Translations under genes and position numbers: made by a program | NCBI GenBank assembly: GCA_963705725.1 | Contig: CAVPKM010000010.1 | Span: forward strand, 12,264 to 76,263 | Direction: 5' to 3' | Source: an uncultured Gammaproteobacteria bacterium | GTDB taxonomy: Bacteria; Pseudomonadota; Gammaproteobacteria; UBA6002 | DNA: 64,000 nucleotides | The notes under the pieces: model-generated | The model's input: only the letters and a program-made list of their open reading frames with translations | Database searches by the model: none | What the model was told of the DNA's origin: nothing | Shown here: piece by piece, positions 7,389 to 64,000 of the stretch | Layout of the letters: every line of letters starts with the position of its first letter | Position numbering within the stretch: the stretch's first letter is position 1

Positions 7389-7392
7389 CTTG

Positions 7393-8331: not shown

Positions 8332-8347
8332 CGTATTTCCGCCTTTT

Positions 8348-10317: not shown

Positions 10318-10321
10318 TCCT

Positions 10322-11047
10322 TCACCTTGGCCGATAGGGAAGAAGATCAATCGCGTGCCCGGAGAAGCCAATTGGCGGGGCCTGAATTTGACCGGCTAAC
10401 AGCATTTTTTTAAATTCAGCGCGCTGACTGGCCGCTTCTTGCACATGGCTTGCAAAATACACATTTTGTGCGGTGGTTTGGGCCATCAATGTTTGGCGAA
10501 GCAGTTGGAGCTGACTCACTTCTTCTGAGGCGATTTGACTCAACGCTTGAATAGCCTGGGTTTGACCGACCGCTCGCCTTTCTTCTGTTTGCAACAGGTG
10601 GAGCTGTGCTTGTTCTTGATCAAAATGTTGGGCACTTTGATTGAGGCTAAGGAGCACCCCATTTAAGGTGCCAAGCGTTTGGTCGGTGCGTTTTCGATAG
10701 GCGCTATCATAATTATTGACTGGCACCTCACCCGGATAGCTTGCGTTGAACTGCGAAGTCAAATTTTTCGTCGAATAAGACAACCCTTTAGCCGCTTCAA
10801 TACTGGCCCCCATCCGGTTAAGCAGCCCCTTCGTACTGCTCCAATGAAACTGCGAAGGATTCAGCCCCTTAACGCTGGCTAGCTGTTCTTTAAGCGTTGC
10901 GAGTTGCTTCTCTAAGAGCAGCGCCTCACTCCCTAAACGCGCACAAACTGTGGGATCAAATACCACTGCCGCTACCCCATAAGCAGGTAGCACCAGGAAT
11001 TGACTGGCTAAAAGCACAAAAAGTAAGCATAAATTTTTTCTTCTCAT
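10322..11047 (-). CDS. trbJ: TrbJ/VirB5
   Basis: Signal peptide, VVFDPT, AVGQTQAIQA and QLQLLRQ motifs. Confidence 0.88.
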   Translation of the reverse strand: MRRKNLCLLFVLLASQFLVLPAYGVAAVVFDPTVCARLGSEALLLEKQLATLKEQLASVKGLNPSQFHWSSTKGLLNRMGASIEAAKGLSYSTKNLTSQFNASYPGEVPVNNYDSAYRKRTDQTLGTLNGVLLSLNQSAQHFDQEQAQLHLLQTEERRAVGQTQAIQALSQIASEEVSQLQLLRQTLMAQTTAQNVYFASHVQEAASQRAEFKKMLLAGQIQAPPIGFSGHAIDLLPYRPR

Positions 11048-11064
11048 CGTTTTTCCCTCTTTTA

Positions 11065-13536
11065 TTATCGAGTTTTCAGTGATTCATTCAGCAAATCACT
11101 TGGGTGATCAAGGTGATTGGCAGCTAACCAAACCCCAAGCCATTTTTCCCCCTGCTCCCTTTGGCAATCCAATAATTGCTGACTTTTTTCTTTCGACAGA
11201 CCAATAAAACACTTGGCAAGGGGACTGTGCGCTAGCCCTAAATGAATGAGACGATTGCCTTGTGGTGTCGTGACATAGTAATGATGTTTCGGGGTAGCGA
11301 CGCGCCCGATGAGATCTAATTGGCGCACATTTAATCCCATTTTTTGATAAAGAGACCGAGCTTCACTCTCCATTTTTAAATTTGGGAGAAATACTTTGGT
11401 GGGACAGGACTCAAAGAGCGTTGCCGTTACCTGCGTTAAGGTTTTGGTAGCTGGATCATATAAATCAGAGAGCGATTGGGTGGCAAAAATCACGCGGGCA
11501 TTTTTCTTTCGAAGCGTCTTTAACCAATCTCGGATCTTGTTAACAAAAATCGGATGAGTAAGATACAGCCAAGCTTCTTCCAGAATGATTAAGGCGGGGC
11601 ACTTAGCTATACTCTCTTCTAAACGGGTTTCAATTTGATCAAACAGATAGAGCAAAACCGGCAAATAGACTTCCGGCTTTTGGGATAATAACCAGCCCAT
11701 TTCAAAGGTTTGTAAATACCCAGTTTGCAACGTATCACTTTCGGCATCTAGTAGGCAGACTTGGCCCTGCTCTGTGTAATAATTGAGCGCCTGGCGAACG
11801 GCTTCACATTGAACAAGATTCACCAACACACTTAAACTTCGTGATTGCGGATCCACACTTAAGGCCGCGAGCGCTTGGTGGATCGCGCTTTTGATCAATG
11901 GGGTCAAGGTCACATTTTGCAATAACACTAAATTTTCAATAAATTGCTGCGCGCGCATTTTTTGCGAAAAAGTATCGAGTTTTTGCAAGGGGCAAAATGA
12001 CAGCGGATCCTGACCTATCGCATCATGCCTACCCCCTAACGCCTTGGTTAATGCTTGATGAGAAAAATCTTTATCAAAGATAAAAATTTGTGCTTTTTGA
12101 TAGCGTAAAAACTGACAAACCAGTAACCCTAAAAAAGTCGATTTACCGCTGCCAGTTGGCCCAAGTAACACTTGATGACCCACATCCTGGCTATCTAAAT
12201 GATACCGGAAAGGAGTTTGCCCTAAGGTCACGCCATAAAAAACAGGCGGGGAGCTAGGCGGCAAGAGGGAGCTTTTTGGCGTTGCTTTTTCTCCGCACCA
12301 AATATGGCTAAGCGGCAAGGCATGGGCAAAGTTATAACCTGTCACCAGGAGCCTTCTCGCATTACAACTGCCATGCCCAGGAATCGCCCCTCGCCAGGCC
12401 TCTAACGCATTCACTGTCTCAAGTAAGGTGCGACATCCCGCCTGCTCCAAGTAATTCCCAATCGTTTTACTTGCCGCGTCTAACACATCCTGCTCTTCAT
12501 GCATTAAGACCAAGGTGCTCGTCCAATAGCCAAACCGGGTCTGCTCACTTTCACACAACGCGCCAGCTTGGCTCGCTTCATTCCATTTATTCAAGGCATA
12601 TTGATTGCCCCTAACTTGACCCCCAGAAACCATTTCCTTAATTAACCCCATCAACCCTTTGGCTGAATTATGCCAATTGCGCTCAATCCGCTTAATTTCT
12701 GCCTTTGCCGTGTTAAAGCTAAGCGGAATAAAGCGGTGAGAGGCGCGATAAACCAGTGGATAGCTGCCAAGCTCTCGCAGCAAACAGGGAAAGGTGGCTT
12801 CATGAGCAAACCCAAGCACGGTCAAGACATAAATAGTTTTCTCCCCAATTCTTGGCACAAAGCCACCGATCAGCGGCTTTTTGGCAAGTGCCACATCAAG
12901 GTAAAGGCCACTTGGCGACAAAGGCGCAGGACTCACGGTCCCTTCAATACAAAAAGTCAGATAAGCAAGGAGTGCGTCAAGGGTTAACTTCGTCAGCGTG
13001 AATTGGCTTTGTAAAATCAAGACAGCGCGTTCTACCGTTTCCAGAAAGTCGCGCAGTAAATGATTAAGATCTGTCTCAAATGCTTTCTCCACCCCTTTTA
13101 AAAACAGATAACGAGTTTTCGTCGCGATATCGAGCGGAAACTTCCACACAAAGGTGAGCACATACCGATTTTCAAAATGCTGCCCTTCTTTAACATAAAG
13201 CGCCCTTCGCTCTTCATCAATGAGGGTTGAGACCGGGTCCGGAAAATGCCCTTTTTCGGGATACGCCCTAGCTGGCAGGCGAATTTCATCTACATGCAGC
13301 ATCCAGCCATCTTCTAAAACCAGCAGCATCCGATTAAATAGCGCCATTAAGGCATCGCGCTCAATCGGGGTAGCGGAATCAAGATCTGGGGCTTGGTAAT
13401 CATAACTCACCAAGAATCCCCCATCTTTCAATAAAATGACCCCTTCCTCTTCCAGGCCATGCGCAAAGTTCAGTAAATCTGACAGCGCTACCTCGTTAAG
13501 ATGCCGATTTTTTTTCTTGAACCACCCAGCTATCAC
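11065..13536 (-). CDS. trbE: TrbE/VirB4 ATPase
   Basis: DVGHQVLLGPTGSGKS Walker A, FDKD, LEEAW and WLKTLRKKN motifs. Confidence 0.95.
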   Translation of the reverse strand: MIAGWFKKKNRHLNEVALSDLLNFAHGLEEEGVILLKDGGFLVSYDYQAPDLDSATPIERDALMALFNRMLLVLEDGWMLHVDEIRLPARAYPEKGHFPDPVSTLIDEERRALYVKEGQHFENRYVLTFVWKFPLDIATKTRYLFLKGVEKAFETDLNHLLRDFLETVERAVLILQSQFTLTKLTLDALLAYLTFCIEGTVSPAPLSPSGLYLDVALAKKPLIGGFVPRIGEKTIYVLTVLGFAHEATFPCLLRELGSYPLVYRASHRFIPLSFNTAKAEIKRIERNWHNSAKGLMGLIKEMVSGGQVRGNQYALNKWNEASQAGALCESEQTRFGYWTSTLVLMHEEQDVLDAASKTIGNYLEQAGCRTLLETVNALEAWRGAIPGHGSCNARRLLVTGYNFAHALPLSHIWCGEKATPKSSLLPPSSPPVFYGVTLGQTPFRYHLDSQDVGHQVLLGPTGSGKSTFLGLLVCQFLRYQKAQIFIFDKDFSHQALTKALGGRHDAIGQDPLSFCPLQKLDTFSQKMRAQQFIENLVLLQNVTLTPLIKSAIHQALAALSVDPQSRSLSVLVNLVQCEAVRQALNYYTEQGQVCLLDAESDTLQTGYLQTFEMGWLLSQKPEVYLPVLLYLFDQIETRLEESIAKCPALIILEEAWLYLTHPIFVNKIRDWLKTLRKKNARVIFATQSLSDLYDPATKTLTQVTATLFESCPTKVFLPNLKMESEARSLYQKMGLNVRQLDLIGRVATPKHHYYVTTPQGNRLIHLGLAHSPLAKCFIGLSKEKSQQLLDCQREQGEKWLGVWLAANHLDHPSDLLNESLKTR

Positions 13537-13853
13537 ACCTTTCTCCTTAACGCGCGTGGCAAAGCAGGAGAAGGCACAGCGGTCGCACTCACTAAAAAAG
13601 GAATCGGCTCATAGCGCTGCTGATAACGAAGATGGCGCTGATACACCGATAAAAAATTAGCATCTTGTTTCGTTAAGCGCTGACCGATACTTAAGCCAAT
13701 TGACAAAATCACACTCCCGAAGACCAGCATGCTGGGGGTAAATAAACTCGTTAATACCAGCGAGGAAGCTAGGGCAAGCATTAAAAAAAAGAGGCGTTTT
13801 TCACCCCAAAGAACAACGTTTCGCGGTTTAAGGCTTGAAAATAATGACAACAA
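13533..13853 (-). CDS. trbD: TrbD/VirB3
   Basis: SLKPRNVVLWGEKR, two TM helices, D...VYQRHLRYQ; overlaps trbE start. Confidence 0.8.
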   Translation of the reverse strand: MLSLFSSLKPRNVVLWGEKRLFFLMLALASSLVLTSLFTPSMLVFGSVILSIGLSIGQRLTKQDANFLSVYQRHLRYQQRYEPIPFLVSATAVPSPALPRALRRKV

Positions 13854-13873
13854 GTGGCTTCCATCCTGCCCCC

Positions 13874-14188
13874 TTAGATCACGCTGCCAACGCCAAAGAG
13901 GCTACTCACCCCTGCTGGCCCGGCCAAAGCAAGCGATGCCCAGCAAAGAATATTTAAAATGCGCTTCACGCCATCCCCCCATTCTCCAAAGGCCATCATC
14001 AGCATCGTCGCCACCCATAAAATCACTAAGATGACAAAGACGCCGGATAAAAAGTTGGTTTTGAAGACGTCCAAAGTGCGATTAAACGGTAAGTAGCCGG
14101 TGGTGGAAGCAAAAGCCTCAACTTGACAAAAAAGGAGCAGCAGTAATGTGCCGCTTTTAAAAGCGCGAACAAATTTGTTACCATGCAT
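13874..14188 (-). CDS. trbC: TrbC/VirB2 pilin
   Basis: Signal peptide, LPF, two TM helices with AFGEWG; lies between trbB and trbD. Confidence 0.82.
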   Translation of the reverse strand: MHGNKFVRAFKSGTLLLLLFCQVEAFASTTGYLPFNRTLDVFKTNFLSGVFVILVILWVATMLMMAFGEWGDGVKRILNILCWASLALAGPAGVSSLFGVGSVI

Positions 14189-14224
14189 TTGTAGGGTTCC
14201 TTAAATAACGTGGGGCACTACCTG

Positions 14225-14255
14225 CCTAAGAAGGGTCTCAACTCCCCTTCTTAGG
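14225..14255. other. Intergenic stem-loop between trbB and trbC
   Basis: CCTAAGAAGGG-9nt-CCCTTCTTAGG perfect 11-bp stem. Confidence 0.6.
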
Positions 14256-14272
14256 ATTCTGATTTCATGCTG

Positions 14273-15253
14273 CTAATCCTGCTCAATCAACTCGCCCTCC
14301 TCATTGACTTTTTCAACAATAAATTGTCCTCTCTCATAACCCTTCACTAAGGCAAGATCGCTAATGACCCCGCCCTGGTTTCCGATACGCTCTACATACA
14401 AAATGGCGTCAATGGTTTGCAGCATGAGAGAAATTGGGGCGGACTGTCCGCCTTGGTGGCAAAGGTCCATTATTCTCTGCAATGTTGCCTCCACCCCATT
14501 GGCATGAAGCGTGCCAATTCCTCCTGAACATCCCACATTCCAGGCTTGAAGCATGTCATAGGCTTCCACCCCTCTCAATTCGCCCACCAAAATTCGATCT
14601 GGACTCGCCCGAAGGCTGCTTAATAACAACCGGCTCATCGGCACGCGAGGTTGACTCAAGCAGCGCAGCACATTTCGCCCCGCGCATTGAAGTTCAGGAA
14701 CATCTTCTAAAATAATCAATCGCTCATTGGGATCCAGGCGGGTCACTTCATGAATCAAGGCATTGGTGACCGTCGTTTTCCCAGAGTTAGGGCGACCGGC
14801 CACCACGATATTTTTTCGCGCCTTTATCCAAGCTTTGATACGCGCTGCTCTCCCTTGTGTGATTCTTCCGGTATCCACATAGTCATCCAAAGAAAAAACT
14901 TTCCTGGCTTTTTTTCGAATGTTAAAGGCAGGCCCCAGTACCACAGGTGGCATCTGCGCGTTGAAGCGCTCACCAAATAACCCCCTCTCCTCAGGAAAAT
15001 CGGCTTCTAAAAAAGGATGATCGCTTGAGATCACCCGGTTCATTAATCCTGCCACATTATAAATAATCGCGGTTGCTCGCTTCGTTTCAAGCACACCCAC
15101 GACTTTTCTCCCCTCGCTCAAACTGTCTATCCACACCTCTTGATTAGGATTACGCATCACTTCAATCACCGCCTTATCTGCCAAGTAAGGCATTAACGGC
15201 GCTAGATCTCGCACTAATTTTTCAATGGCGCGGGACTGTTCAGATCGCTCCAT
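14273..15253 (-). CDS. trbB: TrbB/VirB11 ATPase
   Basis: GRPNSGKTT, ILEDVPEL, PDRILVGELRG and GTLHAN motifs. Confidence 0.95.
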   Translation of the reverse strand: MERSEQSRAIEKLVRDLAPLMPYLADKAVIEVMRNPNQEVWIDSLSEGRKVVGVLETKRATAIIYNVAGLMNRVISSDHPFLEADFPEERGLFGERFNAQMPPVVLGPAFNIRKKARKVFSLDDYVDTGRITQGRAARIKAWIKARKNIVVAGRPNSGKTTVTNALIHEVTRLDPNERLIILEDVPELQCAGRNVLRCLSQPRVPMSRLLLSSLRASPDRILVGELRGVEAYDMLQAWNVGCSGGIGTLHANGVEATLQRIMDLCHQGGQSAPISLMLQTIDAILYVERIGNQGGVISDLALVKGYERGQFIVEKVNEEGELIEQD

Positions 15254-51653: not shown

Positions 51654-54572
51654 ATGGCAATTTATCATCTTCACGTTAAAATACTCTCGCGAGGCAAAGG
51701 GCGAAATGTCATCGCCGCTGCTGCCTATCGACGTGCAGCTGAAATGCTGGATGAAAGAGAAGGGATCACTTATCAGTATAAAAATAAACCTGAGGTCATG
51801 CACAGTGAACTCACTGTTCCTGAATCAGCGCCTGATTGGTTACCACAACTTTTACTCGCGGGTTCCCATCAAGCTTCCGAGCGATTGTGGAATGTTGTAG
51901 AAAAAAATGAAAAAAGAATGGATGCTAGGTTAGCAAGAGAAATTGAATTTTCTCTTCCCAAAGAATTAACGCTCGATCAAAATATTGTCCTTGCTAGAAG
52001 TTTTATTACGGAAGCATTTGTTAAACTTGGCATGATTGCTGATTGGAGCGTGCATTGGGTGGATTCGAATCCGCACGTGCATGTGCTGCTCACTACCCGC
52101 GCAATTGAACATGATGGCTTTGGGAAAAAAGTCAGAAGCTGGGATGATAAAGCCCTGCTTTTTACTTGGCGCGCTAAATGGGCAGAAAAGGCAAACTATC
52201 ATCTAAGCCTCAACCTGATTGATGCACGTATCGATCATCGTTCTTATCAAGCACAAGGCATCGAGTTGATTCCCACTCAACACCTGGGTAGAGCGGCTGG
52301 TGAGATGCATCAACGCGGGATTCACATCGAGCGGTTAGGACAAACTCAAGCCATTAAAAAAATGAATTTAAAAAAAATCAAGCAAACACCCGAAGCACTT
52401 TTTAATCAACTGGCGCTTAGGAAATCTAGTTTCTCTCGTACGGATTTAATTGCTTCTTCGCTTTCCTATACTGAAAGCTCTAAAAATTTGCCTTTAACTT
52501 CCCTGCAAATAAAAACCCTTTTAGAAAAAATAGAAAAACATGATGCGGTTTTCTCAAGCCAAGCCCTTGCAAAAACGCTATTTGGCTTAATCAATGATTC
52601 CGAATCTTTTACTGCTGCATTTCAGCAGCTCCTCGCCTCTCCTCAGCTGCTTTCCTTGGGTTTGGGTGAAGATGGGCGAGAACGATTTAGTACGCGCACT
52701 TTATTTTCCATTGAAAAACAAATTGAAGAAATCGCTTTGCTCAAGTCGAGGCGCACGCATTTTTCAATGACGCCGGAACAATTGCAGCATAAACTTAGCC
52801 ATTATGAAGTCAAGCAGCAACAATTCTTTACCTCTGAGCAAAAGGAAGCGATTTCGCACTTGCTCAATCCTACCCAGCTCAGCTGCTTGGTTGGCCGGGC
52901 AGGAACAGGAAAAAGCTTTTCATTAGCTTTTTTGAGAGAAGTCTGGGAATCACAAGGGGTGAAGGTTTATGGCGTGGCTTTATCAGGTATTGCAGCAGAT
53001 GGCTTGAAAAAAGAGGCGGGATTAACTACGCATACCATTGCTGCTTTTCTATTAAAAGCTCAAAATTATCCCCATTTTCTTAAGAAAAATGATGTGATTG
53101 TCATGGATGAAGCGGGCATGTGTGATAGCCCATCAATGCTGAAGATGCTGGAATTAGCTAAACAAGCACAGGCAAAACTTGTTCTTATTGGAGATCCGCA
53201 ACAAGTGCAACCTGTTGGACCCGGCGCGACCTTTCGTGCGATTTTAGAGCAAGTGGGTTATGCTGAACTGCAAACGGTCTATCGACAGCAAGCGTTATGG
53301 CAGCAGCAAGCCACTCAGGCTTTTTCCCAAGGGAGAATTGAAAAAGCCATGGAGGCTTATCATGCCAAAGGCTGCGTGCATGTTGATCAGCATTCCCAGT
53401 CTTCACTTGAGCATCTGGTTTCGGATTGGTTTTTACTTCGTGCTAAAGAGGGGGGCTCCTTGAAGGATTATGCAGTGATTACGCATCGTAATCAGGATGT
53501 AGCGCGGCTCAATCATGCGATTCGAAGTGAGCGAATTTTAAGAAATGAAATTGATTCAGGAGCACAAGTAGCCACAACGAAAGGTGAAATATCACTTTCT
53601 TTAGGTGATCGGCTGTTATTTTTAAAAAACGATACGCGCTTAGGCGTGAACAATGGCCGCTTTGCTCATGTGGTAGCGCTTGACCTCAATGCTGCAGGGA
53701 AGGTAAAAAACTTGGTTTGTGAGCTCGATGGGACACAAACCAGGGTCTTGATTGATCCGATGCTTTATGGGGACTTTATGCACGGCTATGCGGCGACTGT
53801 TCATAAAACTCAAGGGATGACGGTGAAACATGCCTTTGTTTATATCGGGGGGAAAAGCTGGGACCGGCATCTGACTTATGTGGCGATGTCACGGCATAAG
53901 GCGAGCTGTCAGCTTTATGCTGATCGCACCACTTATCCTGGATTTAATCAATTAGCTACCTCTCTTGGTCGTGATGGATTGAAAGATAGCGTATTAGATT
54001 ATCCTTATGCTTTTGCTAAGCGAAGAAATATCCGGCCTAATGAAGGGGGTTTTCTAAAACATCTCACTGCGCGTTTAAAAAAATTTAAAGACGAGATTGT
54101 TCAAAAGCTAGGTGCCCTATCACAAAATGAATTAAATAGGCAGGCTACGGATACGCAAGCCTCTTCATTGGATAATAGTGATTCTTCAACTCAATTCAAG
54201 GCGTTGTTGCTTGAATACCTTGATTTGGAGCTTAAGCAAGAAGATTACCTTAAGCGCTTATATACCATACAAAATCCCTCAGCGAGGCAAGCAATGAAGG
54301 AAGAGATTTCAGCTGGAAGAAAAGCTATTGAAGCATTTGCTGGTTTATTTATTAAAAACCCTGCTCACCGCTATCGTTTAGAGGAAACAATTTCCCGTAA
54401 AATTTTACAAGCTGAAGCGTTTGATGGCTATTCTGCGATTAAAGACCGACTGAAAAACGAAACAGCCAATCACCAGGATATCTTATATCTGTTATCGCAA
54501 ATCAAAAAACGTAGTCAAAGCCAAGCCAGTCACCTAAAGCAGAGTCAGAATAAAGGTAGAGCACAACGGTGA
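51654..54572 (+). CDS. traA: Ti-type relaxase-helicase TraA (MobA/MobL + RecD-like)
   Basis: MAIYHL, AAAAYR, NPHVHVLLTTR, RIDHRS; GRAGTGKS, DEAGM and GYAATVHKTQG motifs. Confidence 0.95.
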   Translation: MAIYHLHVKILSRGKGRNVIAAAAYRRAAEMLDEREGITYQYKNKPEVMHSELTVPESAPDWLPQLLLAGSHQASERLWNVVEKNEKRMDARLAREIEFSLPKELTLDQNIVLARSFITEAFVKLGMIADWSVHWVDSNPHVHVLLTTRAIEHDGFGKKVRSWDDKALLFTWRAKWAEKANYHLSLNLIDARIDHRSYQAQGIELIPTQHLGRAAGEMHQRGIHIERLGQTQAIKKMNLKKIKQTPEALFNQLALRKSSFSRTDLIASSLSYTESSKNLPLTSLQIKTLLEKIEKHDAVFSSQALAKTLFGLINDSESFTAAFQQLLASPQLLSLGLGEDGRERFSTRTLFSIEKQIEEIALLKSRRTHFSMTPEQLQHKLSHYEVKQQQFFTSEQKEAISHLLNPTQLSCLVGRAGTGKSFSLAFLREVWESQGVKVYGVALSGIAADGLKKEAGLTTHTIAAFLLKAQNYPHFLKKNDVIVMDEAGMCDSPSMLKMLELAKQAQAKLVLIGDPQQVQPVGPGATFRAILEQVGYAELQTVYRQQALWQQQATQAFSQGRIEKAMEAYHAKGCVHVDQHSQSSLEHLVSDWFLLRAKEGGSLKDYAVITHRNQDVARLNHAIRSERILRNEIDSGAQVATTKGEISLSLGDRLLFLKNDTRLGVNNGRFAHVVALDLNAAGKVKNLVCELDGTQTRVLIDPMLYGDFMHGYAATVHKTQGMTVKHAFVYIGGKSWDRHLTYVAMSRHKASCQLYADRTTYPGFNQLATSLGRDGLKDSVLDYPYAFAKRRNIRPNEGGFLKHLTARLKKFKDEIVQKLGALSQNELNRQATDTQASSLDNSDSSTQFKALLLEYLDLELKQEDYLKRLYTIQNPSARQAMKEEISAGRKAIEAFAGLFIKNPAHRYRLEETISRKILQAEAFDGYSAIKDRLKNETANHQDILYLLSQIKKRSQSQASHLKQSQNKGRAQR

Positions 54573-54680: not shown

Positions 54681-54971
54681 TTATTCAACTACAACTCCTA
54701 TATTTTGGAATTCCATAGCTTCAGTAAAATTTATTAAAATTTCTTCCTGCTTTTCTTTAGATACCAGTGTTCCATCATCCCATTTTACGAATGCATTAGG
54801 GCTAACTATTTCACAAAATCTACCGTCAGATAAACGCCCATTATCAACTTCAATGGATAGGCATTTATTTCCTTCTCGATATTCAATTGTAAATCGTCCA
54901 ACTGATTGAACTATAAATCCTTTACTACTTTTTACACCTTGCTTATTTATCCATGTAAACATTTTTAACAC
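54681..54971 (-). CDS. Immunity protein, Imm74-like
   Basis: 96 aa, GF.V...GR..IEYREG.K...I......I......KWD; starts 10 bp after the toxin stop. Confidence 0.75.
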   Translation of the reverse strand: MLKMFTWINKQGVKSSKGFIVQSVGRFTIEYREGNKCLSIEVDNGRLSDGRFCEIVSPNAFVKWDDGTLVSKEKQEEILINFTEAMEFQNIGVVVE

Positions 54972-54980
54972 TTCTTTTAA

Positions 54981-57900
54981 TTAATATCCAAAATAATACT
55001 TTGGCTTTATATTTAATTCATCTAGACCTAAAATATTTCTATTCATCAATATTTCTACTTGCTCCTTCCTATAAATACTGGATGGTTTAACGTTGCCAAT
55101 AAGCGATCTTACTTGACCGCTAGCTTGTTGAATCATTCGACTCGAAACATTAGACCATATCTGAAATATTTCTTCACGTGTAAATGGCGAATTTTGTGAG
55201 AACAGATTCAAATCATCAAGCCATTTTCCGCCTGCAGTCATTTCTAAAGTCACACCACCATTAGCTGCCGCATATTCTTGTGAGATGAGCTTTCCTTTCC
55301 CATCTTTACCTAAACCAGACCACAGAATAAGTTGATTTCTAGGTGTTTTCAAACCTAACTGATCAACATAATCAACAATTTGTTCTGGAGCCCAGCCTTC
55401 CAAAGAGTGTTTCGTTAGCGGGAAAGTGGAAGCTATTTCCTCTGACTTAATAAAAAATTTTGCTACTTGATTAGTTATTAAATGCTCCTGGCTAGCCATA
55501 ATTAAACCAAGAGCTGCAATCTCGCTAGTAATTAAACCAGCTGTTTCACCCAATCCCATCCCAAAATAGTACTCTGACTTTTGCACAATATTCATGCCTG
55601 AAGTATCAACAGGATCAAAAGTAAAACCAGCAACGATTCCTTCTTTTACTATTGCTTCATTTTCTAACATTTTTTGCGCAACGCTGTTTATAAATTGATT
55701 GGTTGTATCAATCTTCTCCGCTATCTTTAAAAGCGGTTCATCAAAGGTAGCTGGGCCATCATTACTGTTTGTTGGAGTTTGATCACACTCATTTTGCTCT
55801 CTTCTAAAAGCTGACAACTGGTAAATAGGAATAGGCGTTTGAAAGTCATTTTGATCATTAAAGCAATTCAGATCGCTGCCTTGGTCAAAGGCATTGTGCC
55901 TAAATAAGTTCTCACCTAGCACTCCATTTATTTGCTGCTCAAGATCTCCCGTTTCCCAGTTGGATAATGCACTTTCCCAATCTTTTGGTGGATTAACACT
56001 TTCTTGATAGTCTTTTACAGTTTGTTTTTGTGCTAAAGCATGATGTTGAGCAGGGAGTGTAGTCATATACAACGGATCTCTATCGCTTTCATATTCCACA
56101 TGAAAATAAGGACCATTCTGCCCTTCTGCTGGCCGATTATCTAAATAGAAAGGGGAATACGTTTTGCCTTGATCTTGAAATGGTTGCGAATAATATTTTT
56201 CATCTCTTGTATAATTTTCTGATTTTATTTTGCCGCTTTCATCTTGAACGGAAATTTTGCTTTCTGTCACCGTTTTATTGTGATCTGAATAAGAAGTCGC
56301 TTCCCACTTCCATTTGTTGGCATTTTCGTTAACAAGATTGCCTAAACCTAAACTGGCATTAAATTCTGATAAGGCAGCGGCTTGCCAAGGCTCAAGGCTG
56401 GTTTGATCTTGATTTTGTTCTCGGTTTTCTTCTTGTGCTTCTGAGCTGGGGTGACTTTCATGTTCCTCTTTACTGGAATCTGCTTTATCTTCTGTCTGAC
56501 TAGAGAGAGGATTAGCCAGTGCTTCATCTTGATTAATCGGATGAATCAACTCATCATATTCTTCTGGATCTTGAACTTCTTCCTCATCATCATCCCCGCC
56601 ACCGTTGTTATTATCATGATAATTTTCTCTATGGCTATGCTCTTTAGAATAAATAGGGAAATCGGGATCCTTTGGAGGAGGGGACGTCGCATCCGTTTGA
56701 TCCACCTGATTGAATCCTAATTGATCATGCAAGTATGCTGCATTTTCTTTGAAGTTTTGGATGACTCCTTCATTGAGGTTGGGAATGGCAACATGCCAGT
56801 TGTGTGAAGTATTTTTAATCACTTCTGTCTGGTGTGCGGCATCGACAATGGGGTCTCCAGTTGTATTTCCATGGATAGGGCTGCCGGCACCATCGATCAC
56901 CGAATGCACCTTTGCCTGATAATCTTGATGAGTAAAATTTAAATCGGTTGTGGTAATCGGAAAACTTTGTAAGTTAGGGGGAATTAAATGGTTCATTTGG
57001 GTATTCGGATCAAAGGCTTTAACATTGCCAGAGAGACCCAAGCCACTGGTTTTTGAATGTTGCCTCACGTCCTTCGAGATCGTTTGATCCGCAGTAAAAT
57101 GATTCACGCCATTTGAAGTAATCTCGCCGCCTTCTGAGTAATACGTGCCAACGCTCAGCTCCTTGGTGTTTTCATTAATGGCCGTGTTCACATGAATGCC
57201 CGCCACTTGATCGACCCTGCTCTCATGATGGGTTTGGTCATTCACATTAAAATTGCCGTTGGTATTGGCGCCCAAGCTCTCACATCGGCTTTCTGATTCA
57301 CTGGCTCTGGTAATAATCGTTAAGTGCTCAATTGCGCCTTTTAATTGATTGGTTTCAAGGTTTGCGCCATCAAGTATCGTCTCTTTGGTATGAAGCGTGG
57401 TGATGCCCCCTACTTGAACTAAGTCATTCACCTGGGTGGTACTGCGGGAGGTTTGATGATCCCAGGACGCGCCTACCTCATAAGGATTCCCGCTTGCAGA
57501 AGCGGCCACACTTAAAGTGGTCTTTGTTTCCTCGTTTTCCGCCTTAAGCGCTATCCCAGATATTTTAAAGGTTTTTGCTTCTACATCTAAATCTTTTGCT
57601 ATCTGCATCGGCAAGGCGTTTAACGCTAAGGTATCCTCGATATCAAAATGTGCAGAGCCCGCAACAATGCCCCCTTGACCTAAAGACTCTTGGCTCCCAT
57701 GTGAGGTTGTCCACGTTACATTCACGCCGATTTGCGGGGCATAAAGATTCGGTAATTCTTGCTTTAATGCTTCTTGTAGTAATGTCCCGGTGCGAAGACC
57801 ATTTAATAAGCCATTTGCTGTATTAGCTAACGCAATACCGGTACTCGCGCTATTCAGTAACGCCTCTCCCATGCCAGTTGAATGGCTTAATTGCTGCAAT

Positions 57901-60900
57901 TGGTTGAAGAGTGGGTCCCCGCTCCAAAGCGGCGTCTGGTTATTTTCCTGATGGCAGTTTGCGAGGTTTTGATGACATAACGTGATCCCCAAACCAAAGC
58001 TTGATTTGTCGTGGGTATGGGTGAGCGGCGTCAAGCTTGCTGTAAAATCTTTGGCCTTAGCCTCAAGATGACCGGGCGTCACTAAAGCGGTATCGGAAAT
58101 TTTGATATGATGATCGCTTAAAAGCGTGATGCCGGTTTGATCATAGACGATAGTCGGGGCGATCTCTTCCTCTACCTGGTGCTCCTTAGTATAGAAGGGG
58201 CCGGTGCGCCGGGTTTGCGTGGTGTCAACAAAGGTGGGTAGGCCATGTAAATTAATGTCATCTTTAGCATGAAGGAGCGTACCTTGCTCGGCTTCAAACG
58301 CACTCGCTTCCGCCTCTATGGCCCCTTGGGTGGATTCAATTATATTCTGCCCATGGGTACTGACAATTTGGGAGGTCCCTACAACCGGAGCATGCGTGGT
58401 AGTCTCCTCCTTGATTAAGCCAAAATCTTTTGATAGGGACTCGCGGTTACTGATGTAAGTACTGACCTTAGCTGTGCTTTCAAAGCCAAGGTCCGCTAGT
58501 ATCACGTTGCTGCCACCGCTTTGAATCCAGGAAGCCTCATTTTCTACCTTGCCTGTCGTATGAAGGTAGCAACCGACGCCTTCGTGATCCTTGCCATCCC
58601 CGCCCAATAAATACGAGGGGCGATAGGTTTCATGCGTATCAAATTCACCCACGACTGGCTCGATTCCGCAGACATTATGCACATTTCTGGCTTCAATATG
58701 CAGCCAGTTTAATCCTTGGAGGATTCCGCCATTTAAGTTATATAAATCTTCTTGCAAAAATGCACTCAAGGTTTTGCTTAAAAAGCTTTGGCCATTATTG
58801 ATTAAATTGGCTGCCTTAACTTGGGCGTCTTCTGAGAGTAAGCGAGTAGAAATCGGTTTTTTATCAGGATTTTTGCTGTTGACATCTAAGATGAGATTGT
58901 GGGCGGCGTCTAATGAAAGATGAGTAGACATCGCCTCAACACCGGCTAATTGGATATCTGCTCCGCTTTCCATGGCTAAAGTTTCGGCAGAGAGATGGAT
59001 CGGGTGATAAGCCCCTAGATTTAACGCGCTGGCTGTTTGGTAGGCCGGGAGCGAATAAAGGGGCACCGGGGTGGTGGGGCTCGCCGGAGCGTAAGTATAA
59101 ACAGGCAGCCATTGATTGCCGACTTTTATATAAGTGCGGACTTCGTGAAAATGTGCGCCTGGCTCAAGATGACCTGCCATCACCCCTTTCTTACCATAGG
59201 CTTCCAGTAATTTTCCGCCTGAGATGTCATCATAGACTTTAACGGCGCCTTCTTTCGCATAAAGCGAGGTGCCGGCTACCGTGTGAATGGCTTTAGCTAC
59301 CCAAATATTTCCCACCGTGCTCTCTAAGTGCAGGGAATTCAGCCACTGCTCCGCTTGATTTCTGACGCTTTTTCCCACAATGGTTGCATTTTTTGCTGAA
59401 GTGATGGGAAGATAAAGTGCGACATCCACATCATTGATCAAGGTTAATTGCTCTACGGCGAGATTTTTATCCGAAATGAGGTCGTTTACCGCTTGGTTGC
59501 TGAGATGACTATCAATAGCCAGCTCCCCAATGCCATCGATCTTTCCGTTTCGCTCAAGACAAGGGGTGTTGATCAATAATTTCGCATCTTTATCTTCAAG
59601 GTGGAGCGAAGAAGAGGGCGTTAAGGTTACCCGCTTATCGCTATTCAGGCTTAAGAGGTGATGGATGTGGACCTGATCCGTTAACTCTGTTATGTGCGAG
59701 TCGATGCCGACATTATCTGTGCTGAGGTGGTTGCCTATTGCTTGACCGACAGACTCGCCTTGGAAAGCACAGTTTTTTAAAGCCGTCTCTTGTTCTCCTG
59801 CCAAAAACTGCTGACTGCCTTCAAAACACGTATTCACCGCCTCCGTATCCGCGCTAAACGCAAATTGCCCTTCGATCAGGTTGGCGCTTTTTTCCTCTGA
59901 GACGAAGTGATTATGACCGAGTAAACTTCCTCCTGCTTTACTGACAATATGGGAGGCATTGGCTTCAAGTAGGCTTCCTCGTTCGCCCTCTAAGTGTTTG
60001 CCGCTTAAGGTGCTGTGATCTAGTCGCACGTGGCTGGATGCCTCTAGCTTGAGCGTCTCTTTTCCTTCTATAGTAGAATGGGTTGCAGCTAACGTTCCAG
60101 CTAGGTGGCTTGGGGAGTCAATGATCAGTGAAGAATCTTCCAGCACCAACGTTTGCGCAGCGCCTTGATGGAGGGTGCCAATTTGTCCTGAGGATGACCA
60201 AAAAGTGGTGTTGCCCTCTAAAAGATCGGCCTGTTTGATTTGAACTAGCAGATGATCTGCTTCAAGATTGGCTGTTTGGCCCGTTGCTAAGTGGTCGAGC
60301 TTAATGAGTCCGCTATGGGCAGTGAGCTCGCCATTGACGTAGGCTTCCTTTGCTATCAAGGTCTCACTTTGTACTAAGCGCGCGCCGCCTGCTTGCAGGT
60401 AGGTATGGGCATTTAGATTGCCAACCGCCGCTAACTGGTCGTTATGTAGATTGAGGGTAATAAAATGATTTTGAAAGCAGGTTCCTGCTACTTGCTGGTT
60501 GCCAATTGCAGCGCCAACTAGGGCCATTTCATTATAAAGGCCCGTGGCACTGATGCCACTATGGAAGGATATTAAGCTTTGATTGGTGATACTGCCACCA
60601 AAGAGTCCCATTATGCTTGGAAACACACTCAACAAGCTGTCGTGGCTGGCTTGGATTTGATCTGACAACGTAGCCATGGCTTGGGGCAGATTGTAACTAA
60701 ACTCAGTGAAAAAAGTTGCGCTGACTAAGAGATTTTTTAGAGCGGTCATGAGGGAGACGACATCTCTTAACTGGATTTTATTGCCGGCTTGATGCCTTGA
60801 AATAAGCGCTTCGACTTCTTGGCGGACGGTTAAGCCATTTAAGGCGAGTTGCAGTAATAAGTTGATGGCAGTTAAGATCAAATTGATTGAAATGCCGGTG

Positions 60901-63900
60901 TCTGGGGTGAGTACCATCAGGAGCTTGCCGGTAATGGTGGCCAGTTGCAAGGCATTAGCCGCGCTACTGACCAAGAAGGCTTTGCCATCTATGGCATCGT
61001 AATAGTCTTGAATCAGCTCTCTGATCGATTGATCTTTAAAAAATAAGCTGTCGAAGGTCTCGCCAAAAAACGAGACTAAGCTTTTGAGGGATTTTAGAAA
61101 GGTGAGATTTAAGCTTAAATCGAGGCTCACGAAGTTAGAGCGGCTTAAATGTTTGACATTGACCAAGCCGATGCTCACATCTAAAAAAGCATTGATCTGG
61201 GCGACTTGATCTGCTTCCACGTTAGTGAGCAGATTTAAATAAAAGGCAGTGTTGATTTTGATGGATTTTCCTGAGAGTTGCCCTCCCTTTCCTTCTTTGA
61301 GGGCGTGAAACGCTTCGCTTTTTAAGACGCCGCTCATGACGGATTCATCAAAACCTAAATTTAGGCTGTCGGCGGCGGAAATATTGCCGGTATGCCAGCA
61401 GGTTTTGCCGCTTAACTTGATGTGCGCGCTTGAGATCATGGTGCCTTCTGGAAAGATTTCTAGTGCTTCCTCAGTTTCGCCATAAATACTATCTTGAGAT
61501 TCGATAGCGCCGTAGAGCTTTATGCTGTGGCTGCGGGTGACGAATAATCCCGCTGTTTGTATGCGCGCGCCCTGATCGAGGTAGGCGCCACTACTTGCTA
61601 GGAGGAAATTAGCGGCTGGCTTGGATTCCTGCTTAGCCGGTTTATCGACTTCTCCTCCCTCATTAGGCAATATGGGAGGAGTCAACCCTGTCGCTTGGCT
61701 TTTGAGTATGGATCGAGAACTAGCAAACAGCTGTTCACATAACACACTGAAATACGCTTGAGTGTCGACTTCTCCATCGATTTGCAATCCCTTGGTTTGG
61801 ATCACAAATTGCTTAGCTACATGGGGATTATTGCTTTCCTCTAACGGTTTGAGTTTTCCTTTAAGCAAGGTGTTCTCAGTAAATGCATAAAAATCGTCAC
61901 AAAATAGCTGGCCTTTTTTAATGAACCGATCGCAGTAGAGCAGTAACACATTCGCTTTAATGACAGATTTTGAACTAAAAAATACGGCTTCATCGCTATG
62001 GAGCGCAAGCTTTTGGCAAGCGATTTCTCCACGTGCTAACAGGCTTTCGCTGCTAATGGCTAGATGAGTGGCTTGAATGCAGCTCCTTTGACAGAGTTTG
62101 GCTTGATTGCCCGCTTCTAGCGAAATCGCTTCTCCCTTTAATTGACCGCGAATAAAAAGCTGATCTGCTGAAGTTATGCTTAGTTGTTTGCTGTGAAGGA
62201 TGCCATGCCTTGATAGACTCAGCAGTTTTTCTGCTGAAAACTGCACGGTATCAACGATTATCTCTCCGCCGCATTCAATCGCTTCTGCCCTCACCTGCAA
62301 GCATGCCTCTTGGCCTTTTGGGACTACATTGCTAATTTTTGCAGATTTCTCAATCCGCACCTGCTGCCCTTCAAACACTGCTTGCTGACTCGCCAGCTTG
62401 CCAGCCAGCACACTTTGTTTTGCCTCTACGTTTAACTGCTCGCAGGAGAGATCCCCAGTCTCTTTAAACGTAAATATCTCACAGAAAATTTGTAGGTGGC
62501 TCAGCACATTCAGCACTGAAGATAAATAGATTTCTCCTTCCGAAAAAACTTGCAGTGCCTGGATCGGTGCCATCCAGTTAAGGCGACTTAAGTCAAAGGT
62601 TTTTGACAGCACATAAAGAAAGACTTCGCCCGCTACGTTAATTACATAGCCTTCGATTTCCCCTGCTTTGCTGTAAAATACTTCACGAGTTGTCACTGCC
62701 TCTTGATAGTTTTTTAGGAAACGGGCTTTTCCTCCCTCATCTGGACTGCTTCTTGCTAAGGCAATCTGGTGTTTTCGAAGCAGTTCGGTATCAATGGGAG
62801 AAATCGCGGCTAAGGATTTTTCCTTAGCTAAGGCCATCACTTCTTCCACCACAATGGGTCCCGAAGCAGCGGAATCACTCAAGTGCTGGCGAGGAGCATA
62901 AGGGCTACCTTGGGAGCAATAAGTGAGTAAAATCCCTTCATCAAGCGCCTGCAACCTTTTTGTTAAGGCTTTGCGTAATTGCCCCTGTTCCGCTTGGGTA
63001 AACTTCCCTCCGCCCTTAGGGTCATGAAGCTGCAAGGCAATCTCACACTCCTGGCCTTGTTTTTGAATCGTGATCTCGGTGGTTAGCCATATTTGATTGC
63101 GGCAATAAGGGAAAAGGACCTGGATCTCTGTATTTTTTTCTGAAGATAACAGGATCGCGAGGTCTGAAAAGTTTGAAAAGGCAGAGCGATCATCGGTTTG
63201 GGTGGATTCTGACTGCGTAGCGAAATCAATATAAAAGGCAATGGGTTTAGCGCTTTCTTCATCTCCGCCTACTGCCGGAAGAATCAAGGTATGCCAGGAA
63301 GCCACATTTAACAGCGACTGAAATCCTGCCTTGATCCCGCCCAGCTGCTGAATTTTCTGCTCAAGCAAAAAATTCATGGCGGCTTCATCATAGCCAGCAG
63401 GAGAAAGCAAGGGTGGCAGCAAGAAACGACTTTCGGCACATGCCTTTGGAAAAAACCCCTGCTGACTAAAAAAATCTAGCTCCGTTAGAAACTGCCCGTT
63501 AAGTCTCAACCACGAAGCTTCAAACGCTTGTTGCTTAGCTTTTTTCTCCTGATGCAGCACCGCAGAAGAAACCTGGGTCATCGCTTGATCTTGATCGCCT
63601 AACACCAGCCATACCGCAAGGTGCTGGGTGCGTTTTAATGCGCGCGTGAGCAGCGTAATATCGCCTGACAATTTGCAGCTAAGCAGCGTTATCCTAAGGG
63701 GTTTATTCTCTCTCGCCTTATCCTGCTCCTCAATGAAGGCCTTAATTTTTAATAATGCAGTTTTATCAAGTGGCAACCCACTTAAATCCAGTGAAGCAAT
63801 CGGTTTAAGTAATATCACGTCAAGCAGGGCATGGACTTCCTCATTTGATAACACATGATGGCGTAAATTCACCTCCTCGATGACAGGCATACGCGCTAAA

Positions 63901-64000
63901 CCCATCAACAGCTGATTGAAGGCACTGACCCCGTGAAAATCACGGGGTAGCTGGGCACTATTAAATGTCGTATCTTCTAACAATCGAAAATACATTAAGC
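54981..64000 (-). CDS. Giant polymorphic toxin: LRR + CE-clan-like domain + hemagglutinin-like repeats + C-terminal ADP-ribosyl cyclase-like (Tox-ARC) domain; 5' end runs off the window
   Basis: No stop upstream of ATG 63995; C-terminus LWSG...TLEMTAGG...IWSNVS...ASGQV...SSIYRKE parallels the CD38 motifs WS, TLEDT..G, FW..VS and STF..VE. Confidence 0.85.
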   Translation of the reverse strand, partial: LMYFRLLEDTTFNSAQLPRDFHGVSAFNQLLMGLARMPVIEEVNLRHHVLSNEEVHALLDVILLKPIASLDLSGLPLDKTALLKIKAFIEEQDKARENKPLRITLLSCKLSGDITLLTRALKRTQHLAVWLVLGDQDQAMTQVSSAVLHQEKKAKQQAFEASWLRLNGQFLTELDFFSQQGFFPKACAESRFLLPPLLSPAGYDEAAMNFLLEQKIQQLGGIKAGFQSLLNVASWHTLILPAVGGDEESAKPIAFYIDFATQSESTQTDDRSAFSNFSDLAILLSSEKNTEIQVLFPYCRNQIWLTTEITIQKQGQECEIALQLHDPKGGGKFTQAEQGQLRKALTKRLQALDEGILLTYCSQGSPYAPRQHLSDSAASGPIVVEEVMALAKEKSLAAISPIDTELLRKHQIALARSSPDEGGKARFLKNYQEAVTTREVFYSKAGEIEGYVINVAGEVFLYVLSKTFDLSRLNWMAPIQALQVFSEGEIYLSSVLNVLSHLQIFCEIFTFKETGDLSCEQLNVEAKQSVLAGKLASQQAVFEGQQVRIEKSAKISNVVPKGQEACLQVRAEAIECGGEIIVDTVQFSAEKLLSLSRHGILHSKQLSITSADQLFIRGQLKGEAISLEAGNQAKLCQRSCIQATHLAISSESLLARGEIACQKLALHSDEAVFFSSKSVIKANVLLLYCDRFIKKGQLFCDDFYAFTENTLLKGKLKPLEESNNPHVAKQFVIQTKGLQIDGEVDTQAYFSVLCEQLFASSRSILKSQATGLTPPILPNEGGEVDKPAKQESKPAANFLLASSGAYLDQGARIQTAGLFVTRSHSIKLYGAIESQDSIYGETEEALEIFPEGTMISSAHIKLSGKTCWHTGNISAADSLNLGFDESVMSGVLKSEAFHALKEGKGGQLSGKSIKINTAFYLNLLTNVEADQVAQINAFLDVSIGLVNVKHLSRSNFVSLDLSLNLTFLKSLKSLVSFFGETFDSLFFKDQSIRELIQDYYDAIDGKAFLVSSAANALQLATITGKLLMVLTPDTGISINLILTAINLLLQLALNGLTVRQEVEALISRHQAGNKIQLRDVVSLMTALKNLLVSATFFTEFSYNLPQAMATLSDQIQASHDSLLSVFPSIMGLFGGSITNQSLISFHSGISATGLYNEMALVGAAIGNQQVAGTCFQNHFITLNLHNDQLAAVGNLNAHTYLQAGGARLVQSETLIAKEAYVNGELTAHSGLIKLDHLATGQTANLEADHLLVQIKQADLLEGNTTFWSSSGQIGTLHQGAAQTLVLEDSSLIIDSPSHLAGTLAATHSTIEGKETLKLEASSHVRLDHSTLSGKHLEGERGSLLEANASHIVSKAGGSLLGHNHFVSEEKSANLIEGQFAFSADTEAVNTCFEGSQQFLAGEQETALKNCAFQGESVGQAIGNHLSTDNVGIDSHITELTDQVHIHHLLSLNSDKRVTLTPSSSLHLEDKDAKLLINTPCLERNGKIDGIGELAIDSHLSNQAVNDLISDKNLAVEQLTLINDVDVALYLPITSAKNATIVGKSVRNQAEQWLNSLHLESTVGNIWVAKAIHTVAGTSLYAKEGAVKVYDDISGGKLLEAYGKKGVMAGHLEPGAHFHEVRTYIKVGNQWLPVYTYAPASPTTPVPLYSLPAYQTASALNLGAYHPIHLSAETLAMESGADIQLAGVEAMSTHLSLDAAHNLILDVNSKNPDKKPISTRLLSEDAQVKAANLINNGQSFLSKTLSAFLQEDLYNLNGGILQGLNWLHIEARNVHNVCGIEPVVGEFDTHETYRPSYLLGGDGKDHEGVGCYLHTTGKVENEASWIQSGGSNVILADLGFESTAKVSTYISNRESLSKDFGLIKEETTTHAPVVGTSQIVSTHGQNIIESTQGAIEAEASAFEAEQGTLLHAKDDINLHGLPTFVDTTQTRRTGPFYTKEHQVEEEIAPTIVYDQTGITLLSDHHIKISDTALVTPGHLEAKAKDFTASLTPLTHTHDKSSFGLGITLCHQNLANCHQENNQTPLWSGDPLFNQLQQLSHSTGMGEALLNSASTGIALANTANGLLNGLRTGTLLQEALKQELPNLYAPQIGVNVTWTTSHGSQESLGQGGIVAGSAHFDIEDTLALNALPMQIAKDLDVEAKTFKISGIALKAENEETKTTLSVAASASGNPYEVGASWDHQTSRSTTQVNDLVQVGGITTLHTKETILDGANLETNQLKGAIEHLTIITRASESESRCESLGANTNGNFNVNDQTHHESRVDQVAGIHVNTAINENTKELSVGTYYSEGGEITSNGVNHFTADQTISKDVRQHSKTSGLGLSGNVKAFDPNTQMNHLIPPNLQSFPITTTDLNFTHQDYQAKVHSVIDGAGSPIHGNTTGDPIVDAAHQTEVIKNTSHNWHVAIPNLNEGVIQNFKENAAYLHDQLGFNQVDQTDATSPPPKDPDFPIYSKEHSHRENYHDNNNGGGDDDEEEVQDPEEYDELIHPINQDEALANPLSSQTEDKADSSKEEHESHPSSEAQEENREQNQDQTSLEPWQAAALSEFNASLGLGNLVNENANKWKWEATSYSDHNKTVTESKISVQDESGKIKSENYTRDEKYYSQPFQDQGKTYSPFYLDNRPAEGQNGPYFHVEYESDRDPLYMTTLPAQHHALAQKQTVKDYQESVNPPKDWESALSNWETGDLEQQINGVLGENLFRHNAFDQGSDLNCFNDQNDFQTPIPIYQLSAFRREQNECDQTPTNSNDGPATFDEPLLKIAEKIDTTNQFINSVAQKMLENEAIVKEGIVAGFTFDPVDTSGMNIVQKSEYYFGMGLGETAGLITSEIAALGLIMASQEHLITNQVAKFFIKSEEIASTFPLTKHSLEGWAPEQIVDYVDQLGLKTPRNQLILWSGLGKDGKGKLISQEYAAANGGVTLEMTAGGKWLDDLNLFSQNSPFTREEIFQIWSNVSSRMIQQASGQVRSLIGNVKPSSIYRKEQVEILMNRNILGLDELNIKPKYYFGY

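Follow-up and report, generated by a model that had tools for sequence, protein, structure and literature searches.

A giant beta-helical protein ending in an ADP-ribosyl cyclase-type toxin domain, encoded with its putative immunity protein on a conjugative element of an uncultured gammaproteobacterium

Organization of the locus

The window analysed here, a stretch of 64,000 nucleotides from the genome of an uncultured gammaproteobacterium (GTDB lineage UBA6002; genome G000, 1.58 Mb in 20 contigs, 92% complete), comprises a conjugative element and, at its right-hand end, a giant toxin gene followed by a small gene for its putative immunity protein, both on the minus strand. The giant gene occupies positions 54981..63998 as a single uninterrupted frame, with 3005 codons in the window, which bears out the preliminary description of a toxin of more than 3000 amino acids (aa). 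The operon is convergent with traA (51654..54572, plus strand), coding for a Ti-type relaxase composed of MobA/MobL and helicase parts, and the gene does adjoin a relaxase module, as had been pointed out. The domains had been proposed to follow one another from the N to the C terminus as leucine-rich repeats (LRRs), a CE-clan-like domain, a beta-helical stalk with a hydrophobic block and a Tyr/Pro patch, repeats resembling the FHA-2 region of filamentous haemagglutinins, an acidic linker, and a tip like an ADP-ribosyl cyclase (ARC), and this order was recovered, with every feature at or near its proposed position. The 5' end of the gene is truncated, the end of the window being at the same time the end of contig C10.

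The protein was scanned in eight pieces against Pfam and NCBIfam, with E values up to 10 or 1, and the sole family matched was Fil_haemagg_2. The G+C content is 44-48% in the stalk-coding sequence (56001-64000) and 37% in the region of the toxin tip and immunity gene (54001-56000), while the contigs of the genome have about 39-40%.

ARC toxin domain

The last ~145 residues of the protein (aa 2862-3005; 54984..55415, minus strand, as are all segments of the gene described below) make up a CD38-like toxin domain, which its sequence places in the ARC family of NAD(P)+ glycohydrolases; the enzymatic activity is predicted from the homology and the conserved residues. The domain is matched by no model in Pfam or NCBIfam. 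In a phmmer search of solved structures, the last 166 residues match 9ro8_A, named 'ADP-ribosylcyclase toxin' (E 3.7e-7), and 9ouf_A (E 3.8e-7), and a profile of 10 ARC sequences matches 9ouf_A at 1.4e-16, 9ro8_A at 2.9e-15, and the Aplysia ADP-ribosyl cyclase 1lbe at 0.021. Four residues, W2893, E2919, W2948, and E2979, are invariant in all 10 aligned ARC sequences, and their spacing resembles that of W273, E299, W323, and E356 of the Pantoea ARCtox, which, according to the accessible part of PMC12605009, are essential in that toxin, as found by mutagenesis. E2979 is the Glu of the SSIYRKE motif, the residue proposed earlier as catalytic. The loop preceding it is one residue shorter in the ARC subgroup to which the window toxin belongs. 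The start of the domain at about aa 2862 (KHSLEGW) coincides with the beginning of the shared cassette in other bacteria (see below).

The ARC toxins were characterised in 2025. In the portions of PMC12605009 and PMC12356396 available, their domains are reported to hydrolyse both NAD+ and NADP+, to poison bacteria as well as yeast, and to be carried by PAAR, VgrG, RHS, LXG, and CdiA proteins; the pairing of Tox-ARC with Imm74 had been predicted by Zhang et al. 2012 (PMC3482391, accessible portion). Contig C7 of G000 carries a second, small ARC toxin gene (locus L020, 554-1650), whose 265-aa product has an ARC domain 32% identical to that of the window toxin.

Immunity protein

The small open reading frame (ORF) directly downstream of the toxin gene spans 54681..54971 on the minus strand. 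The ATG at 54962 is its probable real start, which gives an immunity gene at 54681..54962 coding for 93 aa, the upstream GTG at 54971 being possible as well. The protein has 36 homologues of likewise 93 aa, with 51-85% identity, and none of the 36 has a Pfam domain on record. In the preliminary description it was called Imm74-like. The role as an immunity protein gained support from modelling, whereas membership of Imm74 in the Pfam sense fell away: the protein is not matched by Imm74 (PF15603) even at E 10. It appears to be a divergent Imm74-like relative short of the Pfam threshold, for three reasons: it has 27% identity (E 2e-7) to the product of a 99-aa ORF located 3' of the second ARC gene on C7, which itself scores 23.2 bits on Imm74 (cut-off 27.1); two of 25 members of the immunity family match Imm74 at E<=1; and in the atlas clusters nearest to it, 11% and 21% of the proteins bear Imm74. 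A search of the Protein Data Bank with the immunity profile returned chance antibody matches only.

A model of the complex between the toxin domain and the 93-aa protein scored 0.78, compared with 0.33 for the best control, with a partner pLDDT (the per-residue confidence of the prediction) of at least 90 and with 73% or more of the contacts common between runs. That mark is attained by 116 of 157 solved complexes and by two of 215 mismatched pairs, counts that are approximate, as alignments of our own making were used, and likeness to the solved ARC toxins may account for part of the result. The contacts involve residues 39-45, 78-94, and 114-123 of the toxin piece, adjoining its catalytic W38, W93, and E124, and the immunity protein is thus predicted to sit on the active-site cleft.

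Variable C-termini and mobility of the cassette

When an alignment of the immunity family was scanned against one genome per species, 33 loci from many phyla were found. An ARC sequence lies directly upstream of the immunity gene in 17 of them and is lacking there in the remaining 16; the catalytic ARC core is covered in 10 loci, one of which is frame-broken. In Pandoraea communis and in a metagenome-assembled genome of the Legionellaceae, the ARC/immunity cassette is carried by an RHS protein longer than 3300 residues. As a mobile polymorphic-toxin module, the pair of warhead and antidote is therefore an ordinary one.

The carrier, in turn, bears different C-termini. The relatives of the stalk can be aligned with the window protein, at 26-36% identity, between about aa 440 and aa 2340-2495, and beyond that they diverge: P0045 ends in a RES domain, and P0046 and a degraded copy on contig C18 of G000 have other C-terminal sequences. 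The pre-toxin region of the window protein (aa 2546-2861; 55416..56363) ends in a shared hydrophobic motif, EYYFG[ML]GLGE (in the window EYYFGMGLGE; with the residues that follow, aa 2809-2836, 55491..55574), after which the members of the family split into different toxins. Two LYN strings, at aa 1154 and aa 1752, were considered as a toxin boundary of the Burkholderia type and rejected, as they lie inside the stalk and the homologues differ there. A conserved carrier, variable C-termini, a downstream immunity gene, and orphan cassettes, by which polymorphic toxin systems are recognised, are all present in this family.

Further copies of parts of the operon are dispersed in G000. The copy on C11, a chromosomal contig, has suffered a deletion. 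At C13:72812-73667 there is an orphan immunity gene, 100% identical to that of the window and with short pieces of the toxin gene on its flanks, and a frameshifted immunity copy is located at C18:63732-64020. The same contig has, at C18:72447-76177, what is left of a relaxase gene, with 81% identity to the 3' end of the window traA, and adjoining it a frameshifted copy of the pre-toxin part of the toxin gene, in which the C-terminus is different; two tandem ORFs of 109 aa each, which come after this toxin copy, are candidate immunity genes. Seen against these deleted, fragmented, or frameshifted copies in a small genome rich in insertion sequence (IS) elements, the window gene could be taken for one more decaying and non-functional relic. 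This is improbable: the 9-kb frame is free of stops, the catalytic residues and the immunity gene are intact, and 3005 open codons do not arise by chance.

Stalk

The stalk begins with a beta-helical segment (aa ~440-967; 61098..62681) that is 27-29% identical to P0003, P0004, and P0045. The beta-helix is then interrupted by a hydrophobic alpha-helical insert (aa 968-1133; 60600..61097), within which lies the sole strongly hydrophobic stretch of transmembrane grade in the protein (aa 1026-1059; 60822..60923), and it is resumed in a second segment (aa 1134-1700; 58899..60599). The latter includes the Tyr/Pro patch VYTYAPASPTTPVPLYSLPAY (aa 1633-1653; 59040..59102), in which the YP region of CdiA had been suspected; the patch has 21 residues and lacks a conserved counterpart in P0003, P0004, and P0045, so it probably does not represent a CdiA YP domain. 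The region most widely conserved among the relatives is the FHA-2-like one with Fil_haemagg_2 repeats (aa ~1754-2447; 56658..58739). Fil_haemagg_2 (PF13332) matches it at aa 2154-2240 (E 6.1e-8) and, in the piece comprising aa 1501-2000, with E 8.7e-6, the best stretch being at about aa 1865-1918. An acidic low-complexity linker (aa ~2448-2545; 56364..56657) leads to the pre-toxin region, and there are 23 and then 22 Asp and Glu per 100 residues across aa 2401-2600. The stalk, the hydrophobic block, the FHA-2-like repeats, and the linker of the preliminary description were thus all located.

The segment aa 880-1230 was modelled with AlphaFold2 on a 5-row alignment, and the model is of low confidence, with a mean pLDDT of 51.6 (60-73 in the strands). 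It predicts a beta-helix on both sides of the helical insert, whose own pLDDT is 27-57; the model is unusable there, and no conclusion about the fold of the insert was drawn. The beta-helical flanks best match secretion domains of TpsA proteins, namely HxuA (Z 17.7, rmsd 2.1, 161 residues aligned), HMW1 (Z 16.3), and EtpA (Z 15.6). As generic beta-helices follow close behind at Z 11-15, these matches point to the fold and not to membership of the TpsA family.

The stalk is rare. A full HMMER search with its core (aa 424-1600) matched four proteins among 1.84 billion representatives, and tblastn with both halves of the stalk found no match in 72,556 plasmids. The GTDB order of the organism consists of five genomes in one genus, and homologues are present in two congeners. 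For the FHA-2-like part (aa 1700-2420), relatives were found in eight of the 301 genomes of a class-wide sample, G000 and the congener G001 among them, and in the six others the encoded proteins are giants whose open frames run to 1055-3714 residues. In the four giants that were fetched (2070-3714 aa), one weak match to Fil_haemagg_2 was the only sign of a Pfam domain, and signal peptides were absent. No conserved neighbour gene or secretion partner was seen beside the relatives.

N-terminal region

The N-terminal part of the window protein comprises about two to three LRRs of the ribonuclease inhibitor (RNI) type (aa ~27-125; 63624..63920), one repeat fewer than in the relatives. The Pfam LRR models do not match the protein; a profile made of it and three relatives matches the designed LRR protein 4r5d (5.9e-7), the ribonuclease inhibitor 3tsr (5.3e-6), and the LRRs of NLRP1 (3.4e-5), and the profile of the wider family gives an E value of 1.8e-10, in keeping with the ribonuclease-inhibitor-like repeats reported before. 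In the distant relative G109, an RNI-type LRR_6 protein of 461 aa (E 1e-40; contig C20, locus L071, 3236-4618, minus strand) is encoded divergently beside a giant stalk protein of 3172 aa, so the LRRs are there a separate gene, whereas in the family of the window toxin they are fused N-terminally.

Residues ~190-420 are an insertion unique to the window protein and missing from the other members of the family. Within it, aa ~202-377 (62868..63395) probably adopt a fold similar to that of the CE-clan proteases (Ulp1, SENP, and deubiquitinases). The only sequence relative detected is a part, 26% identical, of a 1277-aa ankyrin-repeat protein of a congener (G001, contig C13, locus L019, 4830-8663); no match was found among longer proteins or, by sequence, in the Protein Data Bank. 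The ESM features of the domain are nearest to those of Peptidase_C48 (ElaD; 0.93, 184 common features) and C57 (0.91). An AlphaFold2 model based on a 2-row alignment has a pLDDT of 45.6, and with this low-confidence model Foldseek gives no match at or below 1e-3, the best rows being RavZ (E 5.5e-3), the poxvirus I7L, CidB, SseL, and OtDUB. The top rows of VIA-align are mostly CE-clan proteases with Z values of 6.7-4.8, all below 8: Lpg1148 (6.7), RickCE (6.4), a Ulp1-like protein (6.3), and OtDUB (6.2), besides SENP1/3/5, NEDP1, RavZ, SseL, I7L, Ulp1, CidB, AvrA, and ChlaDUB1. The catalytic pattern of the clan, which we take to be HW...D...Q...C, served as a guide to the expected positions of the triad, and in an alignment of the two known copies these positions are occupied by I/P, D/N, and S. 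Since the catalytic His and Cys are not in place in either copy, activity as a cysteine protease is unlikely. Of the CE-clan-like domain of the preliminary description, the fold is made probable by VIA-align and ESM, and an active protease is not.

The length of the missing 5' end can be estimated from the deleted paralogue on C11, which is 92% identical to the window toxin across the first 112 residues of the latter and reaches 56 residues farther, to a Met preceded by stop codons; about 56 codons are presumably lost from the window gene. The additional residues resemble a tetratricopeptide repeat (TPR), with E values of 0.04-0.4 for the Pfam TPR models, below threshold, and three full-length homologues open likewise with a Met and a TPR-like helix pair, at least 56 residues upstream. 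The contig ends where a signal peptide or a two-partner secretion (TPS) domain might have been looked for beyond position 64000, and neither is present in the N-terminus of the C11 paralogue or of the three full-length homologues.

A gene cut at a contig end, with Fil_haemagg_2 repeats and a TpsA-like beta-helix, might belong to an ordinary CdiA/CdiB two-partner system that lost its TPS domain and cdiB at the contig break, the more so as a CdiA bearing ARC with Imm74 is already known from the accessible part of PMC12356396. This origin is barely credible. The paralogue and the three full-length homologues start with the Met and TPR-like motif behind stop codons, and neither a TPS domain nor a ShlB-type (TpsB) transporter scores over the cut-off in G000, at 92% completeness, or in four of five other genomes bearing relatives (G001, G004, G058, and G248), while the same search recovers both in G109, on contigs other than that of the giant gene. 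A weak ShlB match in G000 was rejected as a TpsB, the protein being TamA. The giant protein moreover has no VENN string and no PT-VENN/DUF637 domain (Pfam to E 10). The absence of a TPS domain, VENN motif, and CdiB remarked on earlier was thus borne out.

Secretion systems of the lineage

Among the export routes considered, type VI secretion (T6SS) was dropped, no VipB having been found in G000, and so were a type I (T1SS) route and a classical C-terminal signal for type IV secretion (T4SS), as the C-terminus differs among the members of the family. TolC is present in G000. The Dot/Icm component DotD is encoded in all five genomes of the genus; in G000 its gene is at C1:79973-80338, with 280 bases left before contig C1 ends. 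Searches of G000 for DotI and DotH found neither. In the congeners, DotI is located 8-10 kb from DotD, and the equivalent place in G000 would fall past the end of C1, so the remainder of its Dot/Icm cluster probably fell into a gap of the assembly. All 10 other genomes that have stalk relatives encode DotI, compared with 38 of the 151 genomes of the class sample. Because the genomes bearing relatives are kin, this co-occurrence is a lineage association only, and no proof of a functional link.

This background suggests another role for the giant protein, that of a host-directed effector which, whole or in fragments, would be translocated by Dot/Icm or would enter the membrane of the vacuole from the surface of the bacterium by means of its hydrophobic insert, would engage host proteins with its LRR and CE-like modules, and would deplete host NAD+ or produce ADP-ribose or cyclic ADP-ribose, the small gene protecting the producer before export. 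RNI-type LRRs and a CE-clan-like fold are features typical of the effectors that intracellular bacteria produce, the CE-like domain recurs in the ankyrin-repeat protein of a congener, Dot/Icm genes occur throughout the genus and in every other genome with stalk relatives, and ARC toxins poison yeast besides bacteria (PMC12605009, accessible part). We regard such a role as a serious rival but as the less probable reading, since the orphan immunity genes (in G000 and at 16 of the 33 loci elsewhere) and the RHS-borne cassettes of free-living bacteria are marks of inter-bacterial conflict, the FHA-2-like part is the best conserved, the CE-like domain is devoid of catalytic residues and absent from the other family members, and the Dot/Icm link may merely reflect shared ancestry.

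Conjugative element

The toxin operon resides on a conjugative element with T4SS genes, ParA, ParB, KfrA, an integrase, toxin–antitoxin modules, and IS elements of the IS66 and IS256 types. The VirB-type T4SS with its coupling protein is encoded at 3557..15253, on the same element as the toxin. TraA is about 37% identical to TraA of alphaproteobacterial plasmids. The operon had been described as plasmid-borne; the conjugative nature of the element was substantiated and its status as a plasmid was not, both a plasmid and an integrated element being compatible with the contig. The homologues in other genomes had no adjoining T4SS genes within the DNA fetched.

Right after virB11, the T4SS operon contains an ORF of 1599 aa (15256-20055, minus strand), whose best Pfam match, NNH6 at E 1e-3, is below threshold. 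Two IS66 transposase genes (1335-2882 and 31107-32654, plus strand) have identical Pfam scores, and the customary small ORFs come before each; probably these are identical copies of one IS, lying on either side of the T4SS and partition genes. An IS256-type gene (Transposase_mut) occurs in two copies of opposite orientation, at 33271-34501 (plus strand) and 39989-41219 (minus strand), both broken into a 163-aa and a 234-aa ORF; between them they enclose an AAA_28 gene, a major facilitator superfamily (MFS) transporter gene, an AbiEi/AbiEii pair, and a KfrA-like gene, and the segment may be a composite transposon.

Comparison with known systems

In its C-terminal domain, the window toxin is homologous to Tac1 of the Tac1/Tci1 pair (an LXG protein of Streptococcus parasanguinis, secreted by T7SSb) and to ARCtox of the ARCtox/ARCimm pair (a PAAR protein of Pantoea ananatis, T6SS), and has the same four catalytic residues. 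It also shares with them the immunity gene located directly 3' and the mobility of the cassette between delivery scaffolds. In distinction from the ARC toxins treated in the accessible portions of PMC12605009 and PMC12356396, its carrier is not one of the PAAR, VgrG, RHS, FIX, LXG, EsxA, TPS/CdiA, pyocin, Flp pilin, or Fn3 proteins; from these toxins and the Tox-ARC/Imm74 pair it also differs in the immunity protein, which is below the Pfam cut-off, and in the shorter loop before the catalytic Glu. The new part is accordingly the stalk or delivery scaffold, the ARC warhead and its antidote being already characterised in print.

The likeness to CdiA/CdiB lies in the giant beta-helical filament, the Fil_haemagg_2 repeats before the toxin, the modular C-terminal toxin with its immunity gene, and the orphan immunity copies. 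The family of the window toxin differs in having no Sec signal, TPS domain, CdiB, VENN motif, or DUF637. It further lacks a recognisable receptor-binding or YP domain, the hydrophobic helical insert interrupting the beta-helix instead, and it has an N-terminal TPR-LRR module and a pre-toxin motif of its own, EYYFG[ML]GLGE, followed by a hydrophobic stretch. The CE-like region resembles in fold the CE-clan effectors Lpg1148, RickCE, SseL, ChlaDUB1, OtDUB, and CidB, and also RavZ, but differs from them in that the His and Cys of the triad are not in place, and the scores are weak and come from a low-confidence model.

The closest precedent in concept would be the CDI-like/Rhs-like toxin/antidote modules of Rickettsia, intracellular bacteria, which in the accessible part of Verhoeve et al. 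2022 (PMC9111745) are described as being without cdiB or signal peptides, and for which export by T1SS or T4SS and antagonism between co-infecting bacteria are suggested there. The present system differs in belonging to Gammaproteobacteria with Dot/Icm, in its other toxin and antidote families, and in a full-length giant carrier, intact in its open frame. A published description of a carrier of the window type was not found in open-access text.

Proposed mode of action

The locus is best read, with fair probability, as a polymorphic toxin operon composed of an ARC NADase warhead, its cognate immunity protein, and a rare, TPS-independent beta-helical carrier. The giant protein would be a filament of TpsA-like beta-helix and Fil_haemagg_2 repeats with an exchangeable C-terminal warhead. 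Once inside a cell, whichever it is, the ARC warhead would drain it of NAD(P)+ and so kill it, and the 93-aa protein, covering the active-site cleft, would protect the producer and its kin. As there is no Sec signal, TPS domain, or TpsB partner, export would follow a non-TPS route, probably of type IV, through either the Dot/Icm system of the lineage or the VirB system of the element, and the constant TPR-LRR module and the hydrophobic helical insert may serve export, anchoring, or membrane crossing. The producer probably lives inside other cells. Bacterial targets, most likely neighbours in the same host or niche, are favoured by the orphan immunity genes, by the occurrence of the cassette on RHS toxins, and by how well the FHA-2-like part is conserved, a region associated in CdiA with entry into target bacteria.

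Several points weigh against this reading. A TpsB could sit in an assembly gap of the 92% complete genome. The true 5' end is deduced from a degraded paralogue, the window copy being cut, and confidence in the two structure models is low (pLDDT 45.6 and 51.6). The homologues have no conserved secretion partner next to them, and the variable C-terminus argues against a classical C-terminal T4SS or T1SS signal. The LRRs, the CE-like fold, and the Dot/Icm background suit host-directed effectors equally well or better. The immunity gene, finally, says nothing on the target, as any cytoplasmic NADase needs one.

To our knowledge, all carriers of polymorphic toxins are characterised by a domain at the N-terminus from which the secretion system can be told. 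A bolder proposal, which we put forward tentatively and hold to be possible rather than probable, is that the stalk represents a new, TPS-independent class of polymorphic-toxin delivery, confined to Dot/Icm-bearing, cell-associated Gammaproteobacteria. The TPR-LRR module would then replace the trafficking domain (TPS, PAAR, or LXG), the helical insert would replace the receptor-binding/YP region of CdiA as the membrane-crossing device, and one filament, acting from inside a eukaryotic cell, would deliver swappable warheads (ARC, RES, and others) into rival bacteria or the host.

The significance of the polymorphic toxin operon lies in a carrier without a known trafficking domain, with few public relatives, and seen only in Dot/Icm-equipped bacteria. 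The family forms a natural series, one scaffold with ARC, RES, and other toxins, in which the swapping of warheads can be studied at a new pre-toxin junction. If its export route is found, it would add a mode of delivery for contact-dependent toxins and give insight into the way in which bacteria confined to protists fight each other or tap the NAD+ of their host.

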